Source: an uncultured Peptococcaceae bacterium (lineage in GTDB: Bacteria; Bacillota; Dehalobacteriia; UBA4068). From it: a DNA stretch of 64,000 nucleotides. Each line of letters begins with the position of its first letter. Position 1 is the stretch's first letter. The translations under genes were made by a program, and so were the position numbers. Where the stretch lies: the NCBI GenBank assembly GCA_964372025.1, contig CAYJPF010000002.1:9999-73998 (forward strand), written 5' to 3'. Shown here piece by piece: positions 1-34,763 of the stretch. The notes under the pieces are model-generated. The model had not been told where the DNA came from. It did no database searches and saw nothing but the letters and a program-made list of their open reading frames with translations.

Positions 1-431
1 AACTTTGCGAATCTAAGCTAGATTATAAGGATCGTACCTTTATTCTTGAGACTGGTTCACGTGGTGCGGCATTGTTTAGTAAAGCTGTTCTTGACGTAGT
101 ATCAGGATGGTCAGCGGTTAATTTCCTTGGTGGAAACGCAGCTAATCCAGCCGTGATTAGTAAGACATCTAGCGAACTTCATGACAACGCACTTAGCGCA
201 GGATTCCAGTTTACAGAGTTTAAAGCTCCTATGGGAGTAACTCTTAAAGTTGAGGTGAATCCAATGTATGATGACCCAGTACGTAATAAGATTCTTCATC
301 CAAGTGGTGGTGTAGCCGAGTCTTATCGCTTTGATATCATGAGCATTGGTTCTACAGAAGAGCCTAATATTCAACTTGCTAAAGTACGTGGCAAGGAAGA
401 GATTCGCGGTTATATGTGGGGATTAGCGGCG
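1..431 (+). CDS. late/structural gene, exon 1 (5' end lies outside the window); interrupted by a group I intron
   Basis: Frame 0 is open from the window start to TAA at 432-434 (...KEEIRGYMWGLAA*). Coding-like composition; it lies at the head of the late-gene strand. An intron core follows immediately downstream. Confidence 0.5.
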
Positions 432-1251
432 TAAGCCTTTACACATTTCTCAGTTCCCAGGCCCTGACCAATATCAGAAGAGAGGGCATAAAAAACAAGG
501 TTAATTGCTGGAAACTCTTTAGAGCTTTTAGTACCCAAAACTTCAAACATTTAAATATGGAAGAAACATGGAAAGATATTGAGGGATTTGAACATAAATA
601 TCAAATTAGTTCCCTCGGAAATATCAAATCAGTTGATAGAATTGATACATTAGGTAGATTTAAAAAATCTGCTTTACGTAAAAAATCTTTTGAGAAAGAT
701 GGATATGAGTATATTACTTTAATCGGAAGTAATAGCAAAACAAGATCTTTCTTCGTACATAGACTAGTAGCAAATGCTTTTGTTAAAAAGCCTGATATTG
801 ACACACTACAAGTAAATCATATCGATGGCAACAAATTAAATAATGCTAGCTCTAATCTAGAGTGGGTGACTCCACAACAAAATACTAAGCATGCGCTCAC
901 ATTAGGACTTCGCCCATCCGGAGAAGATCATCCGAATGCTAAACTAACTAATGCTCAAGTATTAGAGATTCCTACATTATTAAATTTAGGATATTCTCAG
1001 AAAAAGATTTCTATATTATATAATGTATCCTATTCAACTATTAAAAATATTTGCCAAAAACGTAAATGGCAATTTTTGGGTAACAATCTAAAAGATTAGA
1101 CAATCAGCAGCCAAGCTTCGCAAGAAGAAGGTTCAACGACTATCCCGTTCGGGAGTAGGACTCAAGTGAGTTCGAAACGCCTTGAATTAGTTATTTATTT
1201 AACTAATTAAGATATAGTCTGAACTCTCTAGAAATAGAGAGAGAATACATG
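432..1251 (+). mobile_element. group I intron (IA-like core) carrying an HNH homing endonuclease ORF
   Basis: The canonical group I conserved elements are all visible: P AATTGCTGGAAA (503-514), Q AATCAGCAGCC (1102-1112), R GTTCAACGACTAT (1131-1143) and S AAGATATAGTCT (1209-1220). A P9-like GNRA hairpin CTCTCTA-GAAA-TAGAGAG sits at 1224-1243. The endonuclease ORF lies between P and Q. Exact splice sites are not determined. Confidence 0.7.
557..1099 (+). CDS. HNH homing endonuclease (NUMOD4 + HNH_3-like) encoded inside the intron
   Basis: ATG at 557, TAG stop at 1097-1099. Motifs: EGFEHKYQISSLGNIKS (NUMOD4-like), HIDGNKLNNASSNLEWVTPQQN (HNH) and AKLTNAQVLEI. The track ORF start at 416 is an upstream intron-sequence extension. 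Confidence 0.85.
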   Translation: MEETWKDIEGFEHKYQISSLGNIKSVDRIDTLGRFKKSALRKKSFEKDGYEYITLIGSNSKTRSFFVHRLVANAFVKKPDIDTLQVNHIDGNKLNNASSNLEWVTPQQNTKHALTLGLRPSGEDHPNAKLTNAQVLEIPTLLNLGYSQKKISILYNVSYSTIKNICQKRKWQFLGNNLKD

Positions 1252-1427
1252 GAAACGATGTATTCGTAACGTATAATGTGAGAAATCCGTTTAATGGTAG
1301 TTCAAATAATCCATATATGTCGTATGCAGAGGACTCTGCACAAATCCACAAGATGGCTACTCTAGGTGTCTTTATCCTAGATCCAACTCGTACAATGAGT
1401 TTGATTCCAAATATTCTTGTAGAGTAA
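1252..1427 (+). CDS. putative exon 2 (C-terminal ~58 aa) of the intron-split late gene
   Basis: A frame 0 ORF, the same frame as exon 1, is open from 1218 to TAA at 1425-1427 (…NDVFVTYNVRNPFNGSSNNPYMSYAEDSAQIHKMATLGVFILDPTRTMSLIPNILVE*). A plausible terminal intron G sits at 1251. The junction codon could be T|GA (Trp). Boundaries are inferred, not proven. Confidence 0.35.
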
Positions 1428-16770: not shown

Positions 16771-18437
16771 TGGCTGGTATAAGTGCTTATGATAAGATAG
16801 AGTATGGGGAGTTCAAGCTCCCCTCTCTTCAAGAAATGATGATTGTTCCTGAGTACCTTACTCAGCAGCATGAAATGACTAATGCTGAATTGATTAACAC
16901 TCAATTAGAAGCAGTTAATGTAGGATCATCATTGATACCAGGTATTGATGATGACCTTCTACAACAAACTAATGCTTTTCAACAAAACGTTGATAGCACA
17001 ATAGAAGAATTAGGAAGAACAGGTATTAATTCTACTATAAAAAGTAAGTTAATTGCTGCTAAAAAACAGTATAATACTAACATAGCTCCTATAGGGGTAG
17101 CTGCGCAATCCAGAGAAGCAGCTGCTGCAGAGATAGATGAAGCTCGTATTAAAAATCCAAATTTAATTGCTAAGGATCTTAGATCTATTAGATTATCAGA
17201 TTGAATTTCTAATCCATCTCTCCGTAATCCGGATATGATTGATCTTATGCAGGTGGAAGATAGTGCATATAAAGCTATGGAGCCTTTACAAAATTATGTT
17301 GCCTCCACTGCGCCCGAATTACTTTCAACAGGTCTTTTAGGTAAATATTTTACTAAGGTTCAACAAGGGGCTTCTGTTAATGATATTGCACAATCTATGA
17401 TTATGGATGGCGGGATGGCTCCAGAAAATGCTTCGGAGTTAAGTAAATTAATGCATCTAACTGCACAAAATTTATATGATCTTACTGGAGTAGCTTCTAA
17501 TTATGGTGCACAATCAGAGGCTTCTAACAGAGTATTAGGAATTATTCAAAATGCCTATAATTCAACTATAGGTTCTCCTACTTTTGGAACATTAACTGAC
17601 GAGTGGGCATTAGCAAAAGCGAGGAAAGGTCTAGAAGACTCTGGACAAGATACGCAACAAGGGTATCAATTTTTGACTACTTTGTCTGAACAACGTGATC
17701 CTAATGCTGCGCAAACTTACTCTGAATTATTAGCTCTTCATGCTGACCCAATGGGCACATTCACTACTACTCCCAATAATTCCCCCTCTACCTTTATAGC
17801 AACCGGCATGGGAGGAACTACTATTAAGAATCATGATGAATTAACAGCAAGGTTACGTAAATTAGGATGAGAGGTTACATCAGAGGACGTGCTTAATAAC
17901 ACTCCGTTAGTTCAGCAAGCGATGCAGCATGCACAAACTCAGCTTGCTCAGGCCTCCGAACAACAAGTAGAACTTAATCTTAATTATCCTGATTTTAAGA
18001 GTAATTTTAAAAATATGATAATGCCCAAGGCTTCTACAGGAATGATTAATATTTATAGTTCTACCGAAGATGCTAAAAACGGGACCTCTAAAATTAAGAA
18101 AAAGACCATTGAGGACTTGGCTAAATTAGAGTGATCCAATGATGTCACGGTAGATTTTCAAACTCACGACGGATTATTAGTAATTCGCACACCCGACTCT
18201 GATGATAAATTCTATATTAAACCTGAGGATATTAATACTACTTTAGTTAATACTATGCAAGAGTACAGAGCTCTGCGAGATATGTCGCAAAAAGATTTTT
18301 ACACACATTTAATAAGATTATCTCCTCAACAGGCTGCTTATCAAACAGCACTAAGAAATGATCCACAAGTTATAGGTAATATCATTTTTAATAACCTATC
18401 ATCGGAGAATCAAGGTACTCATTATAAATTAGAATAA
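16770..18437 (+). CDS. late virion protein, 555 aa (TGA at 17202, 17868, 18132)
   Basis: Frame 0 from ATG 16770 (TAATG overlap) through track ORFs 17235, 17889 and 18255 to TAA at 18435-18437. Confidence 0.7.
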
Positions 18438-21400
18438 TGGCAGAATACGATATAACAAAAATCAATGCTGCTCAGAATGAAGCAGATAAGCTTAATAGGG
18501 ATTCTGGATCTATCCAAGGCCTGAAAGGAATAAATACTGTTTCATCTAACGCATTAGATTACATTAGACAAGGACAAAAGGCTGCTCTCTTAGAGCAGTC
18601 TAGTCCGAACACAAGATTTACAGGTGAGAGATATGCGGAAGCTGTAGATTATAACTTTTCAAGATACGATGATTCTTCTGAGAATGTGGCAGATTTAACT
18701 GATATGAATGCAGTTAGGGCGGATGCTCAACCAGGTGTTCTAAAGGCAGGGTCCGCTATTATTGGAGGAGCATTGTCTGGATTAGCTACTGCAGTGGAAA
18801 CTACTGCATACACAACGGACTGGCTAACAGAATTTGCTAGAGCAGATGAAATAGACGAAAGTGTATTTTTACAACTAGCAGAAGCTATGCGCGAAAGTAA
18901 AGCTGCTATATCAAGAGAGATGCCAATATATGAGCGTCCTGGAGATAATGTAGCTGAACAAGTATTTAAATGGAATTCATTAAAAAGTATTATAGATTCA
19001 GCTATAGGATTTGCTATTCCCGGTGGAGCTATTAGTAAAGGCGCAGAAGCAGCCGCTTCTATGTTGGGGGCAGGCGCTAAGGCAGCCATTGCTTCTCAAA
19101 GAACCGCTTACATAATAGATAAGTTCATTACTCCATCCATAGGAGTAGGAGCATCTGCTCTTGCTACTAATTATGGCGAAGGAATGTCTATGGCTATGGC
19201 AGCTAGTGACGAAGTTTCTGAGGAGTATATTAATAATTATGCTGCTCAATATATACAAGCAGCTAAAGAAATGGGGCAACCTATTTCTTTACAAGATGCG
19301 AAAAAATTAGGTGCAGAAGTATTAGCCAATGATGAGAATGCTCAAATGCAATTGGAGTTACTTCAAGAAGACATTGTTAATAGAAATAAAATTATGGCAG
19401 TGTCTAACCTATTTGCTCTTAGAGGAATTATTAAAAATTCTAATTTTAGAAATTCATTATTAAAAAGCCCTACTGCTAAAAAAGCTTGGTTAGAGCAGTT
19501 TAATAAACTTAGCTCGGCTAATCCTATTCTTCAAGCTGCTACAGAAGGTCTTGAAGAAGGCACTCAGGCAGTCATGACTGAAGATGCTACTTTTGAGACT
19601 CGTAAGAAATTAGGATTTACATCTAATCTAGAGGAAGAGATTCCAGTAGATCTATGGGATAGGGTAGTAAAATATGCTGCTAGTAAAGATGTTTTGACAG
19701 AAGCTATCATAGGATTTGCATCAGGTCCTTTACAAAGTGCTGGCGCAAAATTAACCAGTAACGTTCTTTCAGGAGATCCTCTATCTAAGAAGTACGGAGA
19801 ACAATATGCGCAAGAGTATTCTACACAACAAGCTTGGGAAAGTCCTGTAGAAGAGGATGTGCGCAAGATAGCGCAAGGCATTATGTTGAAAGATTTGGCG
19901 GATGCTACTAATGATACTATAGCTTCTAATAAAATGCAGCGAGAGATGTTTGTGAATACTTACAAAAAAGCTGCTACCGAAGGACGTGCTCCATTATTCG
20001 TATCTCTAATGGAAGACGTTGAGCAAGCTACATCAGATCCCACCGAAAGAAATAGAATTAGTGATCTTCGTAAGTTAGCGGAAGCTGCTGAAAATAAGTT
20101 ATTATTTTCGATAGGAGACAAAGAAACAGGCGGACTACGGTTCGATAATGAGTTAGATAAACTTATTCATAGAGCAACTTTAGATGATATTCAAACTGCT
20201 CTCCAAGAAGTACCTTCTGAAATTAATGAGGAAATTAAAGACTCCGGAGAAACTGCATCATTAACTATTAATAAGGGCGAGGCTTTTTATGAAATTAAAC
20301 AGGGGGATAACACAAAGTCTCCAGATGTATCACCGGAGCTAAAAGCAAAGATAGTCGATTATACACAACGTTATGCTGATACTTATAGCGAGTTACAGGA
20401 AGCTAAGCAGGTAAGTAAAGACTTAAATAGTCCCACAAAGAGAAAGGCTATCAAAGAAGCTAAAAGACAAGCAGCCGCTAAAAAAGCTTATGAGGATTTT
20501 AAAAAATCTGCAGAACCTATGGTGGATGCAGACGTAACGTATTCAGACGCACCTGATAAAAAGGTTAAAGTTGTTAATGATGGGGGAGTCCTATATCTAA
20601 GAGAGTTTGACGAAGATTCTCAAGCATATATTACCCCACTGGTAACTAACTCTAAGGACGAAGAGTTACCCATGACCCAAGCCCAATTAGATAAGCTAAC
20701 CTTGACTCTTACTGCACCCCCTAGTTCTACTATACCTGTAGAAGAAGCAGCGGTATCAGAGGCAGTTACCCCTCCAATAGAACCTATTGCAGAACCTGTG
20801 ACTCCTTCTGCAGAGGCCTCTACACAAATTTTAGAGACCCCTTTGGAAAATCTCTATAGTGCTGTAGAGCAGGAACTAGGCAATACTCCGGTGGAGAGAA
20901 TAATTTCACAATTATCGGATAGAATAATCTTTGAATATAATTCATTATTAGAAACTAATCCTACTGAAGAGCAAATTAAGAATTTCTTTAACGCTATTGG
21001 AGGACAGTTGAATAATTTCCCAATGCTTCAGCAAGTACTCTCCCAATCAGACGATTTTCTTAATGTTTGGACTATTCTAAATACGAGTGCGGCAGAATTT
21101 AAGTCTTCAGGCACGTTACCTACAGTAAGTTTGCCTACAATTGCTAATGCTGCCCTTAGAGATAAATTAGAATCTATTAAAGAGGCATCTGCCACTACTA
21201 TAGCTGAGGAGGTCTCTAAGATTGATAGAGAGGAGTTAACTCCTGTAGAGGAGCAAGCTGTAGATGAAGCCATTCAACAAGCTGTTGAAACCATAGTGGA
21301 AGAAGCTGGGGATACTACTAATGAGACTGAGGAAACTGTAGATACTTTAACAGAGGCTATTTCTGAAGTAGATAGTACTACAGCAAAACAACTTATAGAC

Positions 21401-24400
21401 GGAGTTAATGATATAATAACTAAAGTTCCTTATACATTTACTACTCCGAAAGAAGTTAGGAATGAGTGGCAATTAATTTGGGATGCGGCTAATCAACTTC
21501 CCGTAATTCCTGAGAAGTCTATACAAGCATTATTAAACCAATTCGCTGATTTTTATAAAGGAATTATCGCTATGAATGAAGCTGATAGTTCTAAGGAAAA
21601 ATTAGTTACAGAGATTCGCGATTCTATATATGCATTAGTGGAAACTAAGAAAGGTAATTCTGCCCAACATATATCAGCAATAATGACGGAAGAGAATTAC
21701 CCGATGGAAATTGTATCAGCATTTTATAAAGAAACTTACGGCGAAAATACTTATAGAGGCACTAAAGGCAAGGCTCGAACAAATCCTACTATTGCATGGT
21801 ATGGCTCAAGAGGAGTAGAATATGATAGAAACGAGGTACGCATCACTGTCCCTAATTTAATAAGATGGTATGATTTCTTAAATTCCGGAGAGGCCCTTAA
21901 TTACAAAGGGGAGTTAAGTCCTATGATCTTTGAAGGAAAAACTGCCGTACGCATAGCTATCGTGGATGGAAATGGAAAATACCTTACTTCTGACGGTATT
22001 GTAGATACATTCTCTGAAGACACTTGTATTTGGTCTACTATGCCCGATATCACTAGTAATTCAGCTATAAAAGAAGATACTCAGGAGGTAGGTAAGGATT
22101 ATAAAGATAAAATCTGAGATCCTATAGCAGGCAAAGGAAATATTTTAACTGTGGAATTCTCAATGTTGACTGGAGGAGTACTTGATCTTAATAATAAATT
22201 TATTAATAACTCTGAGGTTCGTCCCCTAGGGGAAGCGTTCGCAGAAGGATCTACCATAATTGTTCCTCCCAATACGTCTTCTCCCAAAGAGTTTGATTTA
22301 AAGGTAGCCACACAAGATAATTTTGCGGCTGGAGAAGAAATACTAGCGGTGAAAAGGGGTCAATACATTCTATCTACTAAAGATAGACACTTTGTGGCAA
22401 ATACTGTTTTACCTAATGAGGATGACATTGACTTATTAGCACTAGCTTTGACTGACTTTTTAACAGGACGAGACACATTTAGAGACGCTGGTAATAAACT
22501 CACTTCTGCAGACGTACTAAAACATTTTATGCGTATTTTACCTATTGAATATACTACAGTAAAAGACGCTAAAAGAATAGCTGCTGTTAAAATATACATC
22601 AATGATGCTAGAAATCCAGTAGATAGATTTATTTCGATTAATAACGTAGATTATAGGGGAGACGCAGGAATAGAAGCTATTAAAGCCGCTTTGCCCACTA
22701 TGTATTATAATATACAAAGCCGATCTCTTAAAAGTACTAGTAAAATTGTTGTTCCAGAATTACACATAGATGGAGGGTTGGGTAACAAAACTTACAATAA
22801 TTTTAAAGAATTTGCTATAGATAAATTAGTAGGATTTAAAAATGCTAGCTTTGATGGAACTATTTCTAAAAATAAAAGATTAGTAGTAGATCCCAAATCA
22901 ATCCAATCCACGATAGTAAGCGAAGAAGCTGCAGAAGAAGTAGTAGAAACCGTTGATGAGTTAAACACTATGTTTTTTAAACGTAAATTAAACATTATTA
23001 ACGGCGTAGAAGATTTTGATAAAGCTAAAAAATGGTTTGAGAGTAAATTCCCAGGAATAGAGTATAGAGTTATCGCATCAGCAATGTCTTCTGGAGAATT
23101 CGGATCATTTGTGGATAATATAGTTACTGTATATGATAATGCAGAACGTGGTACAACGTATCACGAGGCGTTTCACGTAGTAATGAAGCATTATTTATCT
23201 CCCTCAGAAAGATTTAATCTACTTAATAAAGTTGCGGAATCTAAGGAATTCAAGGAAGTTAAAAAAGAATTATCTGCTATATATCCAGAATTAAAAGAAC
23301 AAGCACTTGTTGAGGAATATATTGCAAATCGATTCCAAGACTACATGCTTGAGCAAGAAGAATTGCCTAAGAAATCTTTATTTAAAAAGTTCTTTGACGG
23401 ATTAAAGAAATTCATAGAGAGTCTTAGAAATATATTATCTAAAAAATCTGGTAAACAAGATTTAGATAAATTATTTAAGCATATTAATTCAAATTCTTTT
23501 AAATTTATAAAATCAGCTTATCAGAATTATGATTATGTAGTATATAATAAAATAAAAAATCTTAATGCTGTTCAAACAAAAGACGCTTTAAATAGTATTC
23601 ATTTGTTTTTTATGAGTAATTTTAAACAGAATAGTAAAAGTTTCTTAGAGATATTGACAGCGGATAACGCGAAGCTAGTTGATGAAAGCTATGCTCACGC
23701 TAAAAACTTATTTATACGATACTCAAAGGCTTTTGAGAAGCAATTTAATGATTTAGCTGCCCAGTATCAACAAAATCCTTCCGAAGAAAATGATTTACGT
23801 ATGGGGGAGGCAGGAGATAAATGGTCTGTAATTGAATATGTTTTAGACACCTGGGATTCTCCCGATGGAATTGTGCAAAAACATAAGCAATATATTTTAC
23901 CTAGATATTCTTTATCCTCAGATACTATTCTTTTAGAGGAAGAGGTTGATGATGTAGATTCTGAAGACTCTCCAGGAGGAAAAGTAGTGGGAGATTATTT
24001 CCACGACTCACTTACTTATAGTGCTAAATTAAATGCAAATCGTTCGATCAAATTACTTCTTAGTGGACTACCTAAAAGAGTTGTAGGGCCGGGTAAACAA
24101 GTTCAGTTAGAGTTGAACTCACTCGGGCTGCCTCAACTAGAATCTTTTGGAACTATTTTTAATGCACTAGTCAATAAACTGGCTAATCTAACTGGAGATA
24201 TCAGTGCACAAGAATTATATGATAAACTAAATTCTATTGCTAAAGATTTTCCTACTATTATACCACTTATTCAAGATAGTGGAGATGGAGGAAGAGCGTG
24301 GTTAAATCTAAAAGAAGGAGAAAGTTGGTCTAAAGATGATACATTGTTGTTCACGCAATTTATGCAGTCTTTCACTAAGAATAGAAATGATTTCTATATT

Positions 24401-27400
24401 GCTAAGATGGGTAAAGGAAATGCTTCAACACAATTTAGTGCATCGAGGCATAGTAGTTATGGTAAACTTAGAACTAAGTGGGCACAAGCATTATCAGGCA
24501 AAATACTTAATGGAAATGCTACTATAAGTAAGTATTACATTAATAATGGAGGCAAAATTTCTTACAATAAAGAAGCATTTATTGCAAACTTTGCAACTGT
24601 GGCTAACGGGCGAATTGTATCTAACTTAGACTACGATAATCTATGAAGTGCTATGCGAGCGTTAGGAGTAGAAGAGGCGTATTTCCGAGAGAACCAAGAG
24701 GCACTGCATCGTAAAACTAATGCGATACTTGGACAAATTATGTCATCCTCATACTTTCCACCAATTCTAAGTGGGGACACAGAGACTCTAAATGTTTATT
24801 TTGATTCAGTCATAGATAATAAAATAGATTTTACTGAGAATAGTCATATTAATTTGGAGGACAAGATGATCTATGATGCAACATTACATAGTCATTTAAC
24901 AAAAACTATCTCGCAATTAATGCGGGTAACTACTCCTAATAGTGTAGAAGAGATATATGAAGTGATGCCCTGGCTTAATCCAGAGCACTGTGCTTACGTA
25001 ACTAATTCAAAGTGGTTAAAAGGTCTTCAAGAAGGCACTGTGACCAAGTTACATATGACTATATTGGAAGGTTCTAAAGAGACAGCTTCTGGAGTAGGCG
25101 TGCCATTTGATAAACTAAAGCCTGTTGATAAAGTAATCACTGTGCTTAATAGTATTCAATCTGGAATGTATCAATTAATGCGTCCTGCAGACAATGCTTC
25201 AGAAAGATTTATCAAAGTAGAAGGAGAGTTATTAGTACCTATTACTGCAGATAAGTCGGTGACTATATCTTTATTTAAGAATTATTTAATTGACGAATTA
25301 AATCGTACTCAAGAGGATAATACTGGGTATATTAATTTAGATAAAAATTCTAAAGAAGGATTTATTCTATCGGAATTATTAACCAAAGATCAACTATCAT
25401 ATTACGAAAATGAGTGGAAAAACTCGGGATCTCCACAAAATTTTGGGGAATGGGTAACATCTATGTACTCTGACGTTATTAGCAATAATATCTTGACATA
25501 TCTCAATAAACGAGTTAAAAGATTATTAAACTATCTTTCTGATAATAAAGTAATTTTTATATCAGGAGACCAAGTAGCTATTCGCGGATTACGTACTCCT
25601 AAAGCTACAATGGCTATGGGAGATTTTACTAGATGGTTGTTTAATACTGAGGCAAATTGAATGGCTGGGTTTATAGAGCAATCTAAATTATTCTTTGGTG
25701 ATCCAGCATATTATAAATCTCTTGCAGACGAGTTTAAACGACACTCTGGTGCAGTTGGTCCTAAAAAATATGCTAATACTTCTATTGAAGCTAATGTTGC
25801 TATACAAAAGCATTATAAGCGATTATTAGATGGAGCAGGCAATCTCATGGATAAAATCACGGGAACTAAACCTATTTATCGAACTGCTATATTTAACGAT
25901 GTTATGACTTACTCACAACAAATTGTATATATAGCGGATACTCTAGATAAAGATAATGCAGCCTACCAAAAAGCTAAAGCAAATAAAACTGACGACGCTT
26001 TGATAGAATGGATTATTTCTAATGCTAAGAAAGAAGGTTTAAAAAGTGCTGCGTACTTAGACATGACTGAAGGAGACGGATTCGGATATATATCCCTAGA
26101 TGCATATCGTGATTTAAAAGTTCGAGTAGGAGATTGGTCTGATGACGCTGAGAAACTATATCAATGGGAAGTATATGAATATAATAATACTCCTAAAAAG
26201 GACCGTACATACACAAATTCTTCGGGAGTAACAACATCGTTAAGATACGGAGATTGGGGAAAACAGGTATTTCATTCACTAAAGCCTCAATACTTTGGCC
26301 CTATGGCAGAGGTAGGATTTAGAACTACCATGTATAAAACTTCTTTGATGCCCTTATTGCCAAGTGTTATAAAGGGGAGAAACTTAGAGGCATTACATAA
26401 ACACATGGTGGATAATCAAGTAAGTATACTTACTCACTACTCTGCTAATAAAGGCGTTACTACTAAAACTAAGAATATAGACGGAGTTAATACTACTAAC
26501 TCATTCTATGATGTGCAAGGAAACTTTGGTATTCAAAATGGGTATTACTTGGGGGATCCTGGAGAATTCTTAACGCAGGATACTTATGTAGAAAACTGGG
26601 GTATTCAGGTAGACACAGGTGAGAAATCACACACTGATGTTATTACTGGTACTCAGATGATGGTGCATATTCTTAATGGCTTATTTGATGGAGGATCTAT
26701 TGCAGACGATGTTACTAAATCTCCTGAGGAAAAAGCATATATTCAAGATAGAGTAGATGAATATTTTGCTCTAAATAATGAACGCATTTCTTTAGGAGTA
26801 GAGAGGCTGAAGGATATATTAGGAGTAGATATAACAGGTTCTGAATATTCGTTCTCAAGAGAGGGAGTGGAGAAATTATTGGATATGCTCACTAATGACG
26901 CTATTACTCAAGACATGCCTGATAATTATTTTGAGGCGATTAATATTTTGAAAAAGCAGTCTCCAGAGAATGTTAAGTTAGACTTGCTTCCTAATAAAGA
27001 GGCTTTTGAAAGTACTTTATTGAGCATTGCTTCTAAGAATACTATCAAACAAAAGCGTAAAGGATTTGCAGCGCTTCAAGTAGCTGCTACTATGTGGGAA
27101 TCCGGTAGTCGTAAGAAGATAGGTGGGATGTTAGCAGGATCAGATCTTAAATTTGTAGTATCAACTTCTAAAGAGGGAGTTAGAACTTCTTCTATGGAAG
27201 TATATATACCAGATATTTATAAAGGCAAAATTAAGATAGGTGATGCAATAGACTCAAGATTACTCCAACTGATAGGATTTCGTATTCCTACACAGGGTTT
27301 ATCTTCTATTGATTCTATTATTGTTAAAGACTTCCTTCCTAAAGAAGCCGGTGATATTATAGTTCTTCCGACAGAAATTGTGGCAAAAGCAGGTTCTGAC

Positions 27401-29680
27401 TTCGATGCGGATAAAATGTATTTATATACTCCAAATTGGTTCTTCGATAAAGATGGTAATGTGGCTTATGTAGATTATGCTAATTGAGAAACACAATTTG
27501 AACAATTGTTATCTACAGATAGTAAAATTACTAGGGAAGAGTTTAAACAAATGGCTATTGAGAATAGGCTAGCTGAGATTCAGCAAGATTTAATTACTTT
27601 ACCGGGCAATACTTCAAATCTTATTGCTCCAGTGTCTTCAGATGTACTTGAGGACGCTGCTACAAAAGCAATGATAGCAGTGCATGGCGAAGATAATTAT
27701 GAGTCTTCTGCTGAATATTACAAGTCCAAATCACCGTTCTCAGCTATGACTGATCTTATTTATACTTCGGAAGTATCTGAAAATTATATGGCAGGTAAAG
27801 CTGAAGTAGGTATTACAGCATCTCAAGGTAAAATGGGAGTATACTGCTCTATCTTTGATTTAGGAGTAGTGTTATCGGAGAATGTCCCATCAAGAATAGC
27901 AGGAGTTCCCCAGGAGTCTTTGCCATTTAAAATAAATTTAGATGGAACTACTATTAAATTGGGTAATAAGTGAGATAATAGGGATAAGTATCCTATTGCT
28001 GAGATTATGAATCAGCTGATTACTATGGCGGTAGACGCTGCTAAGAGTCCTTTTGGTACTAACTTAGGAGCAGATCCTTCTACAGTAGGCATTCATACTA
28101 TGATGGCAATGGCAGGCGGAGATATGGAGCAACTAGCGTTATTTATGAATCAACCTATTATTAGGGAGTATCGTAAATTACAACAATTGCACGAGTCTCA
28201 AATGGCTCAAGAAAATTTTAGTTCCCCATTTGATCAACAGGCTGCTAATAAAGAGACTCGTTTGACTAAAGAGGGAATCGTTAAAAAATTAATGATTAAA
28301 TATGGTGCCAGCGAGAGTGGAGGTAAATTATCTGCGCCTATCACATTAAATCTAACTAATGAAAAACTATTAGACGGATTTAGCAAAGACGCTAAAGAGG
28401 CAATTAAGTATCAACCATTTATTCTGGATACATTCCTCAGATTATTAGACTACTCTAAAATTTTAGGAAAAGCTACTCAAGGAGCTACTTGGGATACGAA
28501 AGGAGGTGGCAAAACTTTATCAGAGACGCAAATTAAGCTACTTACTACTCAAGAGATTCTTGATAGTGGCGTGGTGACTAATTATGGTAAATTAGTAAAT
28601 TCTGGATACATTGCTCCATATAAAGAGGCTGCTGCAACTACGTTTAATATTTATAAAAATTTATTTGTAACATCTTCAGATGAATTACTTTCTGACTATA
28701 TTCTTAAATACGTTATGAGAAGACCTGGATCTACAGGAGACACTGTTAAACGTATGAATAAGTTAAAGAATGCAATATTAACTGCATTAGCATTAAACAC
28801 AGCTAATTCTAACGAAGTATATTTACGAGATAGACAAGAAGAATTGATGTTCGGGATCAATAATATCCCTACTTGGATTATGTCATTGAGGAATGATCCT
28901 AAATATTCAGGGAATGCATTGCTGTCACAATTAGTTCCAATACTATCTACAGGAGGAGAGTCTGATTTTAATTCTTTGAAGTTATTTGCAGACAAGGATA
29001 CTTTATCACAAAATGCTATTACGGAAGCATGGAGAGAACTACAAGTTATTTTTGGTAATAATAAAATGGATGATTTAATGGCGTTTGCCTTACTTCAATC
29101 GGGATTATCTCCTTCCCCACTAAATTTCTCAAAAATAATTCCTGCGGATAGATATTATAATATGCTTATGCCACTTATTCAGGGTGGTATAAATTCTGGT
29201 GTACATGCGGATATCCTTTATAATAATTTCGAGGTGGCAGTAGAATTAGCTTATTATAATGACCCTTTGTTTACGTCTAATCGTAAGTCTCCTATTACTA
29301 GCCTAAAGAAAGTATTTAATAAGGAGACGGGCCTCAATAATATTGTATATATGCCTCCTAAGGCGGATAATAAGCAGCCTGCTAATATATTTATTGATGC
29401 GGTGACTCATATAGATTATGCAAGAAATAAATCTTATGCATACTTTAATTATGCTCCTGGTAGTAAATTAATTGCTGCTCTAAATAAGTATAAGGAAGCC
29501 TTTGTTGAGGAAGTAAAAAGTACTCCTACGCAGGATGGCTCTACAAACAGTTCTTCTGTAGACCAAACTTCTTCTGAATTAACAGCAATTATTCAGGCGG
29601 ATCAAGTTACTTCTGAGGAGAAGGTGGAAAATAACGCACTAAATCCAGATAGCTCTATAGCTGAACAAAAATGTAAATAA
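18437..29680 (+). CDS. giant virion protein, 3747 aa; candidate virion-packaged RNA polymerase (two-barrel type)
   Basis: Six track ORFs (18437, 22151, 24653, 25661, 27506, 28007) are all in frame 2 and separated only by TGA, at 22115, 24644, 25658, 27485 and 27971. The stop is TAA at 29678-29680. It contains SDFDADKM (27398-27418), which resembles the universal beta-prime NADFDGDQM catalytic motif. There is an HEAFH zincin-like motif, and a Pro/Glu/Thr-rich linker near 20.7-20.8 kb. Confidence 0.65.
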
Positions 29681-32600: not shown

Positions 32601-34763
32601 AGAGACAAGTATATTAGGGACGATGCTGTGATAGAGGCAGGATGAATGAATCCTGTGTATAAAGAGATTATTTCTGAGAAACCACTATTAAATTATTACA
32701 ATTTTTATGTGCGTTTTAACAGAATGGCAGAGTTACTAACGGGTTCTTCCATCTCATATAAATTTATTCCTAATATGCGCAAGACTCTTGTGGAAGGATT
32801 GCTCAACAATGGTGTGTCTGCATTTGGCAAAATGAGGTCTTTCACATTAGAAGCACTAGAGACTACTGCACAAGATGATGTGGTTTATAAGTTGAGTGAT
32901 GAGGAACAAGCACTAGATGCCCAAAATAAGCCTATTAAGAAGATTCCTGTGCATTTCGTAGACCCATTGAAAGATAGGCTCACTAAGGCAGAAGAAGAGG
33001 AAATTAAGGCCTCTATTACGGCAGAGCCTGGCAGTGCTGAATATAACGCAATATTTAATGCTAAAAAATTAGACTTAGCTAAACGTAAATTTAATGAGGA
33101 CTCTAAGTCGTACGATCTTAGTTATTTGTTAATGAAGATGGCAGAATCTGTGTACTCTTATAAACATACTAAGCAAGTAGAAGCTGCAGCACAGTTATTA
33201 TTAGCCACTGCTAAGACTGATAAAGTTAGTACTACCTTGGAGAAGAATAAAAATCCTTATATTGATGAATGGCGAGGAAGATTAAAATTCCATCTTGGAA
33301 TATCTTCAGAAGAGATTAGTGCTTTAGAAAGATCTATCAATCTCTATATCTATAAACAGCGCATTCAGAACGATACTACTTTTACAATAGGCGGCAAAGA
33401 ATATTCTACTGCTAAAGCAGTCACATCATTTATTAATTCTGCTACTATTGCTACATTAGGATTTTCCCCAATAACTGCGGCGGCAGCAGGTATTCAAAAT
33501 GCTATAAATGCTAGATTATTGGCTGTAGAGGGAAGGTACTATGATAAACAAGCTTGGAAGAAGGGCAATAAACTAAAGAAGCAAAATCCTAAAGTTTATC
33601 ATGCTTTACAAGAGTTATTAGGAGTGTCTAACATTGGATATTATCACGAAACTAGTATGCAATTTGCTGCCAATAAGATGAAAAAAATTATTTCAGGTGA
33701 TACCACTATGACTATGGTTAAAGGAGCGGATGATAGTGCGGATAGAGCCACTTTAGCAGCATTGGTACATTCTTGGGGATGAGATTCTTCAACAAATAAA
33801 ATAGTTAGTTTGCAAAAAAATCCTTCTGCTACTCCAATAGTAGACTTAATCTCTATAGATTCTAATGGAAAGCCCGTGTTAGAGGGCGTTACTCAGAAGG
33901 AGTTAAGTAGATTTAAACAGATTGTAGCCAAAGTAGGAATGGCGGTTAAAGGTACTATTCCTTCGGAATATGCTTATTTAGGAACTACTACTATAGCTGG
34001 TAGAGGATTAGCCCATTATAAATCGTGGATTCCAGGAGCTGTTAAAACTAGGTATAAAAAATTAGCGTATGACGCAGTTACAGAAGAATTTGATGACGGT
34101 AGATTACGAGTAATGTTCTCAGACTTAGTAGGAAGCACTGAGTATATGATTAAAGGATTCAGAAACGCAATTATACGGTCTTTGCCTATAATTGGTTATG
34201 TGTTCAGTGATAAACTAGGCACTAATGAAAAATACGCTCGTAAATTATATGAAGAGTATTTTGCAATGCGCCCTGATTTAAATGAAGCAGATTTTACTTT
34301 TGAGCAATTTATTGACATGCGTCTTAAAAAGTTAAAAGCTGCGGGTACTGAGATTCAATCTACTATATTATTCTTTCTAATAGCCCTAATGCTTAAAGCA
34401 ATGGCACCAGACGAAGATGAAGATGCTGTAGCAATTTTAGCTCATCAAAATCTATATAGATTACTGTATAAGAGCTATGTGGAGTTATCTTTCTTCACTA
34501 ATCCTCTTAGTATTAGTGAAATCTTAGAATCTCCCTTTCCCGCTATTAGTACTCTCAATAATATAATTCGAGCTATGAATAATACTTTAGATGAAAGTAG
34601 GGACATAGTGTTTGGAGAAGATTACAAAGGTAGTTTAATATGGGAGGAAGACAAAGACGATACCTCTCCTATAGGTAAATATTCTACAAAACTTATTCCT
34701 GGAGTAAACGCTGCTCTCGGTGTATTGGATGTATATGATACATTCTCTTATAATAATAGATAG
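29682..34763 (+). CDS. giant late protein, 1693 aa, with an internal RecB/Cas4-like PD-(D/E)XK nuclease domain
   Basis: Track ORFs 29682, 30576, 32391, 32646 and 33810 are all in frame 0 and joined across TGA at 30477, 32223, 32643 and 33780. The stop is TAG at 34761-34763. Nuclease motifs: GSAIHKYAE, MIYDEKRDLAGTVDVLCVY, IYDYKTH and GAQITQYKNI (QxxxY). Confidence 0.65.

Follow-up and report, generated by a model that had tools for sequence, protein, structure and literature searches.

In group I chemistry, the 5' splice site must follow a U and the intron must end in a G. The T4 td, nrdB and sunY introns, of subgroup IA2, self-splice with a terminal G and a U-G wobble, and their ORFs, of the GIY-YIG or other types, lie in P6a or P9.1. 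The presence of P7.1 and P7.2 between P7 and the 3' strand of P3 is the mark of subgroup IA, the usual phage type. Endonucleases of the I-HmuI family nick one strand near the insertion site of the intron, which starts homing. I-HmuI and I-HmuII (1U3E) belong to the DNA-polymerase intron of Bacillus phages SPO1 and SP82, a phage group I intron with a NUMOD4-HNH-HTH protein. In crAss-like phages, group I introns have been described in core genes, including the gene for the major capsid protein (MCP), and TGA is reassigned to Trp in the late genes of the same genomes (Yutin et al. 2021, Nat Commun 12:1044, PMC7886860). The MCP introns reported there occur in the Delta and Zeta groups and were recognised and mapped by intron-type endonuclease domains (PMC7886860).

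The locus described here lies at the start of a 64,000-nucleotide stretch of DNA (the window) from a crAss-like phage (Crassvirales). Positions 424-1278 very probably constitute a mobile self-splicing group I intron, inserted where the MCP gene is highly conserved, towards its 3' end. Like the introns of Yutin et al. 2021, it is found in this phage order, in the MCP gene and alongside late genes in which TGA means Trp; those were mapped by protein domains (PMC7886860), whereas here the exact site, the helices and the guide pairing are given, and the nearest GenBank relatives are Steigviridae. It resembles the T4 introns in its early stop after the 5' splice site, in its P7.1 and P7.2 and in an ORF looped out from a peripheral helix, but this ORF is of the HNH type and sits in the loop of a P5 extension. 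The resemblance to the SPO1/SP82 intron lies in the NUMOD4-HNH-HTH type of protein, whereas the host gene and host phylum are different and the counterpart of I-HmuI Asp74 is Asn.

Homologous introns are found in crAssphage cr128_1 (NC_055885.1) and bajarodcaudo virus 1 (PQ006092.1), which share the identical insertion site, TGGGGRT/TA...G/TGAGAAA (slashes mark the intron ends), and an alignable ribozyme core. In cr128_1 the P5 loop likewise houses an HNH ORF; the bajarodcaudo virus 1 copy is without an ORF. In both records the MCP pieces, and in cr128_1 the HNH, are given as separate CDSs and an intron feature is absent. Both phages have at least one more intron upstream in the MCP gene, unlike the visible part of the gene in the window and unlike L069, one of the loci with a homologous intron. 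MCP introns and TGA recoding have already been reported (Yutin et al. 2021). The intron is, on good support, a conventional one, and ideas on group I introns or on stop-codon recoding are unchanged by it.

The interrupted capsid gene

The window begins within the MCP gene, whose frame runs open from base 3 until it meets a TAA at 432-434, and again from 1218 up to a TAA at 1425-1427. The parts of the locus are as follows.

3-423, + strand: exon 1 of the MCP gene, ending ...YMWG plus U (position 1 of a Leu codon); Crass_capsid positions 313-449
424-1278, + strand: predicted group I intron of 855 nt, IA-like, last base G1278 (RF00028, homology, P1/P10, covariation)
557-1099, + strand: predicted HNH homing endonuclease ORF, 180 aa, ATG to TAG, with NUMOD4 and HNH_3 domains, in another frame than the exons
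1279-1427, + strand: exon 2 of the MCP gene; UG finishes the Leu codon, followed by RNPFNG...NILVE and the stop TAA 1425-1427 (profile positions 450-495 and cr108_1 alignment)
1439-1465, + strand: terminator-like GC-rich hairpin, then a T run, just 3' of the MCP stop

A profile search with the exon translations identifies the host gene as a crAss-like MCP (Pfam Crass_capsid, PF23898, E 3e-51). A preliminary description of this DNA had supposed a late structural gene, perhaps for a capsid or portal protein, to be identified by homology; it is the capsid that homology bears out. The translation of exon 1 corresponds to profile positions 313-449 and that of 1281-1427 to positions 450-495, so that positions 449 and 450 are adjacent across a join of 423 to 1279. 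Over 189 aa, the spliced MCP shares 83% identity with its intronless cr108_1 counterpart.

The nearest GenBank phages are the Steigviridae cr108_1 and cr128_1, with a DNA identity of only about 70%. A megablast search with positions 1-1500 detected no close relative among GenBank phages, the best match being 73% identical at 23% query coverage. Terminator-like sites number three against 0.9 expected, and all three overlap the one hairpin.

Ribozyme core and covariation

The preliminary description had proposed an Rfam group I intron scan, and this matched RF00028 at 1030-1241 with 53.9 bits (cut-off 50; E 6.6e-11). At a threshold relaxed to E<=0.1, RF00028 detected no second group I intron anywhere in the 64-kb window. 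The score lies barely over the cut-off because the core is split by the ORF. An ORF-less homologue (L003) reaches 77 bits, while the homologous intron of cr128_1 stays under the cut-off.

In the Rfam alignment, P2-P5 fall at 1030-1105, within the last part of the ORF, but the posterior probability there is low and non-canonical pairs occur. On these grounds the placement was rejected, and the 5' strands of P3 and P4 are assigned to 496-511, about 560 nt upstream. The proposed secondary structure has the following elements.

417-459, + strand: P1, exon UGGGGAU (417-423) with guide GUUCCCA (453-459), wobble pair U423-G453
428-437, + strand: small hairpin in the P1 loop, its GUAA loop holding the in-frame stop TAA 432-434
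445-452, + strand: P10 strand of the internal guide sequence, AUUUCUCA, pairing over 8 bp with exon 2 at 1279-1286, UGAGAAAU
461-487, + strand: P2 hairpin, GCCCU (461-465) with AGGGC (483-487), read from the sequence
496-518, + strand: 5' strands of P3 (496-501), J3/4, P4 (506-511) and P5 (516-518), with the P element
501-515, + strand: P element (J3/4 and P4 5' strand), UUAAUUGCUGGAAAC
525-540, + strand: 5' strands of the P5 extension, P5a (525-531) and P5b (532-540), with the ORF in the terminal loop
1101-1112, + strand: Q element, CAAUCAGCAGCC
1101-1132, + strand: Q and P4 3' strand (1104-1109); P6, 1110-1112 with 1130-1132; P6a, 1116-1119 with 1124-1127, GCAA loop
1130-1143, + strand: R element, GGUUCAACGACUAU
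1130-1184, + strand: R with P7 5' strand (1136, 1138-1142; C1137 bulged), P7.1 (1144-1153), P7.2 (1158-1173) and P3 3' strand (1179-1184)
1185-1221, + strand: P8 hairpin (1185-1208); S and P7 3' strand (1215-1220), from the Rfam alignment
1208-1221, + strand: S element, UAAGAUAUAGUCUG
1224-1265, + strand: P9 (1224-1241, GAAA loop) and P9.1 (1243-1265)

P, Q, R and S thus occur all four and in the correct order, as had been read before, and S is indeed followed by a GNRA-capped P9-like hairpin (1224-1241, a 7-bp stem with a GAAA cap). The core contains the helices P3 to P9 and the P3/P7 pseudoknot in addition to these four elements. P7.1 and P7.2 sit between the 5' strand of P7 and the 3' strand of P3, an architecture that makes the putative intron IA-like. 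In the 5' domain, P3 pairs with 1179-1184, P4 with 1104-1109 and P5 with 1098-1100. Farther out, P5a pairs with 1088-1094 and P5b with 1074-1082. The ORF is enclosed by the stems CUUUUAG/CUAAAAG and UACCCAAAA/UUUUGGGUA, and its 3' end shares sequence with P5b, P5a and P5, on their 3' strands.

A search for exact matches to a 22-nt pattern, taken from the P1 loop and the guide (P10 strand), yielded homologues at 22 IMG/VR loci. At these 22 loci, in L069-L071 and in cr128_1 and bajarodcaudo virus 1 alike, the homologous intron has the same insertion site. The distinct IMG/VR loci, together with cr128_1 and bajarodcaudo virus 1, represent 17 distinct introns, all at the identical MCP site. Eleven of the 17 have an HNH ORF and measure 834-855 nt, one of them (L019) with an ORF of only 132 aa; the other six are ORF-less and measure 306-377 nt. 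The cores were aligned with MAFFT after removal of the ORFs (alignment A1), and the P1-P10 structure was drawn by hand from the window sequence. The helices counted were P1, P2, P3, P4, P5, P5a, P5b, P6, P6a, P7, P7.1, P7.2, P8, P9, P9.1 and P10.

Over the 17 sequences, 90% of the cells are paired, versus 35-46% when the partners are slid by 1-3 columns. Compensatory changes, affecting both sides, are seen in 39 pairs, and none of 500 shuffles matches the observed values. P3, P4, P5, P6, P7, P7.1, P7.2, P9 and P9.1 are paired in 100% of cases. Compensatory pairs number one each in P3 and P5, five of seven in P9, six of eight in P9.1 and six of six in P7.2; P5a is 98% paired, with such changes in five of its seven pairs. 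The outer pair of P7, 1136-1220, changes from A-U to G-C in five sequences. All seven P1 pairs form in 17/17 sequences, and five of these have replaced A-U by G-C at position -2 (A to G in the exon, U to C in the guide). Seven pairs of P10 are invariant, which is in part a product of the 22-nt pattern used for collecting the sequences.

P2, P6a and P8 are 43-72% paired, in columns that MAFFT aligned imperfectly on account of indels, so their support comes from reading individual sequences. The P2 stems of the homologues differ from each other and yet are complementary (AGCUCU/AGAGCU, AUCCAC/GUGGAU, AAGCCU/AGGCUU), and the P8 sequences, unrelated to each other, are each self-complementary. At the tip of P5b the MAFFT columns are likewise unreliable because of indels.

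These data bear on the possibility that the element is a dead relic and stays unspliced, the capsid being made as two polypeptides, one ending ...WGLAA at TAA 432-434 and the other, of 49 aa, starting from a GTG at 1278. An in-frame GTG is indeed present at 1278-1280, the homologous pieces are separate CDSs in the GenBank records of cr128_1 and bajarodcaudo virus 1, and splicing is deduced here from DNA rather than read directly from RNA. We nevertheless regard such a relic as very unlikely. The catalytic-core elements, terminal G, U-G wobble and P10 are all intact, the ribozyme is retained in ORF-less copies, and compensatory changes across 17 diverged copies imply selection on the RNA fold. 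Moreover, the insertion splits a codon, and the conserved capsid segment that it interrupts midway runs on unbroken in over 30 relatives. For 424-1278, the analysis establishes the RNA family, the covarying helices, the junction fixed by homology and the domains of the ORF, as well as the occurrence of intronless and of ORF-less alleles.

Splice sites and the junction codon

Candidate 5' sites were all the U residues in 400-440, and candidate last bases of the intron all the G residues in 1215-1290; the score of a combination came from the P1 and P10 helices that one common guide sequence could form. The clear best combination is 423/G453/1278, with a P1 of 7 bp, a P10 of 8 bp, a guide at 445-459 and an in-frame join. 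U423 and G1278 are the bases that group I chemistry calls for, and G1278 is invariant among the homologues. U423 would accordingly be joined to U1279, after removal of 424-1278, in a predicted UUG (Leu) codon.

Homology leads to the same junction. Upstream of the intron the window encodes ...EEIRGYMWGL(AA, stop), and downstream (..YNV)RNPFNGSS...; the intronless cr108_1 MCP has ...EEYRGYMWGLRNPFTGG..., i.e. YMWGLRNPF. At the DNA level, the cr108_1 sequence TATATGTGGGGATTGAGAAACCC corresponds to the joined TGGGGAT/TGAGAAAT of the window. The join of base 423 to 1279 reads TATATGTGGGGAT/TGAGAAATCC, and the ligated exons are predicted to be ...ATGTGGGGAT/TGAGAAATCCG. The predicted spliced MCP, ...YMWGL/RNPFNG..., contains GYMWGLRNPFNGSSNNPYMSYAEDSAQIHK across the junction, next after EEIR. 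Removal of the intron gives an intact MCP frame, equal to the cr108_1 allele. Splicing of L069 at the same sites would produce a complete MCP of 504 aa with no other intron; the L069 intron is 855 nt long and 75% identical in nucleotides to that of the window. The junction is contiguous, TGGGGATTGAGAAAYCC, in 32 further crAss-like MCP genes of IMG/VR. For some of their products, identity to that of the window is only about 24% when the 190 C-terminal residues are compared ungapped and in fixed register. The sequence at the insertion site is conserved across very divergent crAss-like MCP genes.

The preliminary description had placed the intron at 433-1251, joining T432 to G1252 in a TGA (Trp) codon, which would have set it exactly at a recoded codon. 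T432 and G1251 do satisfy the bare U/G rule, the frame from this join stays open, and TGA truly means Trp in the late genes of the phage. Even so, we give this version hardly any credence. With this join (GCGGCGT/GAAACGATG), 12 extra residues, AAWNDVFVTYNV, would come to stand between two neighbouring Pfam profile positions, and the intronless cr108_1 has no counterpart to them. In the enumeration of candidates, no P1 of at least 5 bp could be drawn for a 5' site at 432. A 3' site at 1251/1252 falls in the loop of the P9.1 hairpin (1243-1265), the stem of which is kept by compensatory changes and hence covaries as RNA. The length of 1252-1278 varies among homologues by non-multiples of three (by 1 nt, e.g. 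L002 vs L006), so that this segment cannot be coding. Finally, the perfect P1/P10 guide pairing for 423/1279 would be left unexplained.

In place of a TGA, ligation of the predicted exons gives U/UG (Leu), as in cr108_1 and in 32/32 intronless alleles. The frames at 1-431 and 1218-1427 that had been taken as exons are open, but their ends have to be moved to 423 and 1279. Similarly, the in-frame TAA noted two codons after the supposed 5' site is close by, at 432-434, but the order after 423 is Leu, Ala, Ala, stop.

The reading of TGA as Trp in the late genes, for its part, holds. A TGA at 2190-2192, in frame within the gene at 1476-2468, aligns with a Trp of the cr108_1 homologue. With TGA counted as sense, the longest open frame, otherwise of 1229 codons, reaches 3750. 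The late block on the plus strand frequently has TGA in frame; many of the long minus-strand frames lack it. No tRNA genes, and so no suppressor tRNA, were found within the 64-kb window. With an ordinary Leu codon predicted at the junction, TGA recoding is without bearing on the intron.

Knowledge of the exact splice sites (U423/U1279, guide 445-459) is of value mainly for annotation. In database records of crAss-like phages the MCP routinely appears as two or three CDSs, each labelled 'major capsid protein' and separated by an endonuclease, and full MCPs can be reconstructed with such sites.

The predicted HNH endonuclease and the proposed mobility of the intron

The ORF at 557-1099, which the preliminary description had assigned to an HNH endonuclease lying between P and Q, does contain NUMOD4 (54.2 bits, E 1.7e-14) and HNH_3 (39.1 bits, E 5.8e-10) domains there, both over their cut-offs. 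A C-terminal match with HTH_7 is weak (17 bits vs a cut-off of 23.8). The closest solved structure is that of I-HmuI (1u3e, E 3.6e-16), with which the general-base His and conserved Asn residues align. Where I-HmuI has the metal-binding Asp74, the aligned residue is Asn (VNH vs VDH), and the same holds for the cr128_1 ORF. On these domain and structure matches, the product is predicted to be an I-HmuI-type HNH homing endonuclease. It has 5143 homologues, among which P0001 is identical (100%) and P0003, 73% identical, is encoded in the same intron in L069. Because the ORF is in another frame than the exons, its translation must start from its own ATG.

That this ORF is instead a free-standing endonuclease or defence gene between two genes, next to a chance group I match, is scarcely credible: phage HNH_3/NUMOD4 genes are often free-standing and the RF00028 score is near the cut-off, but the match has an E of 6.6e-11 for the window and 77 bits in the ORF-less homologue, the fold is backed by covariation, and the flanking frames are the two halves of one capsid protein.

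As a mobile intron, the element could work as follows, a scheme in which we infer that the RNA is catalytic, when it is spliced, where and how the endonuclease acts, and that homing takes place. In the late transcript, the guide at 445-459 would pair with the end of exon 1 (P1, with the U423-G453 wobble) and with the first bases of exon 2 (P10). The first attack, after U423, would be that of an external guanosine; the freed exon 1 would then attack after the terminal G1278. The ligated exons, ...UGGGGAU/UGAGAAAU..., would encode Leu (UUG) at the junction and the uninterrupted C-terminus ...YMWGL-RNPFNG...NILVE. In unspliced RNA, translation would stop at TAA 432-434, and the last 48 residues would be missing. 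The ORF, in the terminal loop of the P5 extension, would be translated independently. Its product presumably nicks or cuts intronless MCP alleles in the region of TGGGGAT^TGAGAAA during co-infection, and repair after the cut would copy the intron in. The conserved target, the intronless alleles and the introns with and without an ORF together give the picture of a classical homing endonuclease cycle. The relatives with ORF, without ORF and without intron are a clean natural example of such gain and loss, in abundant human gut phages.

In-frame TGA codons are absent from the HNH ORF and the visible MCP exons, while the neighbouring late genes have them. This led to the idea that the endonuclease could precede or bypass TGA suppression. 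If the intron and the code switch of the late genes did interact, splicing of the MCP transcript could be an additional timing gate on virion production. The HNH of the cr128_1 type is only 37% identical to that of the window. Two lineages in one P5 loop could, quite separately, reflect a cassette-like exchange of the ORF in one scaffold and not simple divergence. Judged jointly, the interaction with the code switch and the cassette-like exchange appear improbable. A 16-nt leader upstream of the ATG, CTTCAAACATTTAAAT, is common to both HNH lineages.

TGA codons in the late genes

TGA is a tryptophan codon in the late genes. When TGA is taken as sense, each long frame of the plus-strand block, which extends to about position 34763, contains 3 to 9 in-frame TGAs; many long frames on the minus strand (36113-63998) contain none. 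In the gene at 1476-2468, the TGA at 2190-2192 aligns opposite a tryptophan in the 'double-stranded DNA binding domain protein' of the related crAss-like phage cr108_1. The longest frame obtained under this reading is the following:

18428-29680, plus strand: single open frame of 3750 codons with TGA as sense, containing 5 in-frame TGAs

Under the standard code, the longest frame anywhere in the window is 1229 codons. ARAGORN detects no tRNA gene in the window (1-64000), so that any TGA suppressor tRNA would have to be encoded elsewhere in the genome or be supplied by the host.

A leader associated with the endonuclease ORF

The HNH homing endonuclease ORF within the capsid gene intron is preceded by a short conserved element:

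541-556: 16-nt leader CTTCAAACATTTAAAT, immediately 5' of the HNH start codon

The leader occurs at the same position in cr128_1 (L002) and, among the IMG/VR loci with homologous introns, in L006-L008, L011, L013, L014, L019, L020, L022 and L023, and is thus kept between ORF lineages whose proteins are only 37% identical. The ORF-less introns lack it, so the leader may serve as a signal for translation or transcription that moves together with the ORF.

Two of the IMG/VR introns may represent stages of endonuclease loss. The longest ORF of the L019 intron is only 132 amino acids, versus 184-194 in the nearest related copies, and may be decaying. In L017, the place of the ORF is taken by some 80 nt of unrelated inserted sequence.

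Intron copies and other interruptions in related capsid genes

The intron copy of cr128_1 (L002, 2727-3570) scores below the gathering score of the Rfam group I intron model RF00028, despite being clearly homologous and structurally intact. The sensitivity of the model is reduced because the core is split by the ORF inside P5.

The capsid genes of cr128_1 (1351-2246) and of bajarodcaudo virus 1 (L003, 391-2414) carry one or two more endonuclease-containing interruptions further upstream, with the annotations 'homing endonuclease' and 'intron associated endonuclease'. The capsid gene of L069, a relative with the same intron, has no further interruption; the matching region of the capsid gene studied here lies outside the window.

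One further element, terminator-like when read on either strand, follows directly 3' of the capsid gene stop:

1439-1465: GC-rich hairpin AGGGGAAGATTTCTTCCCCT, followed by ATTTT
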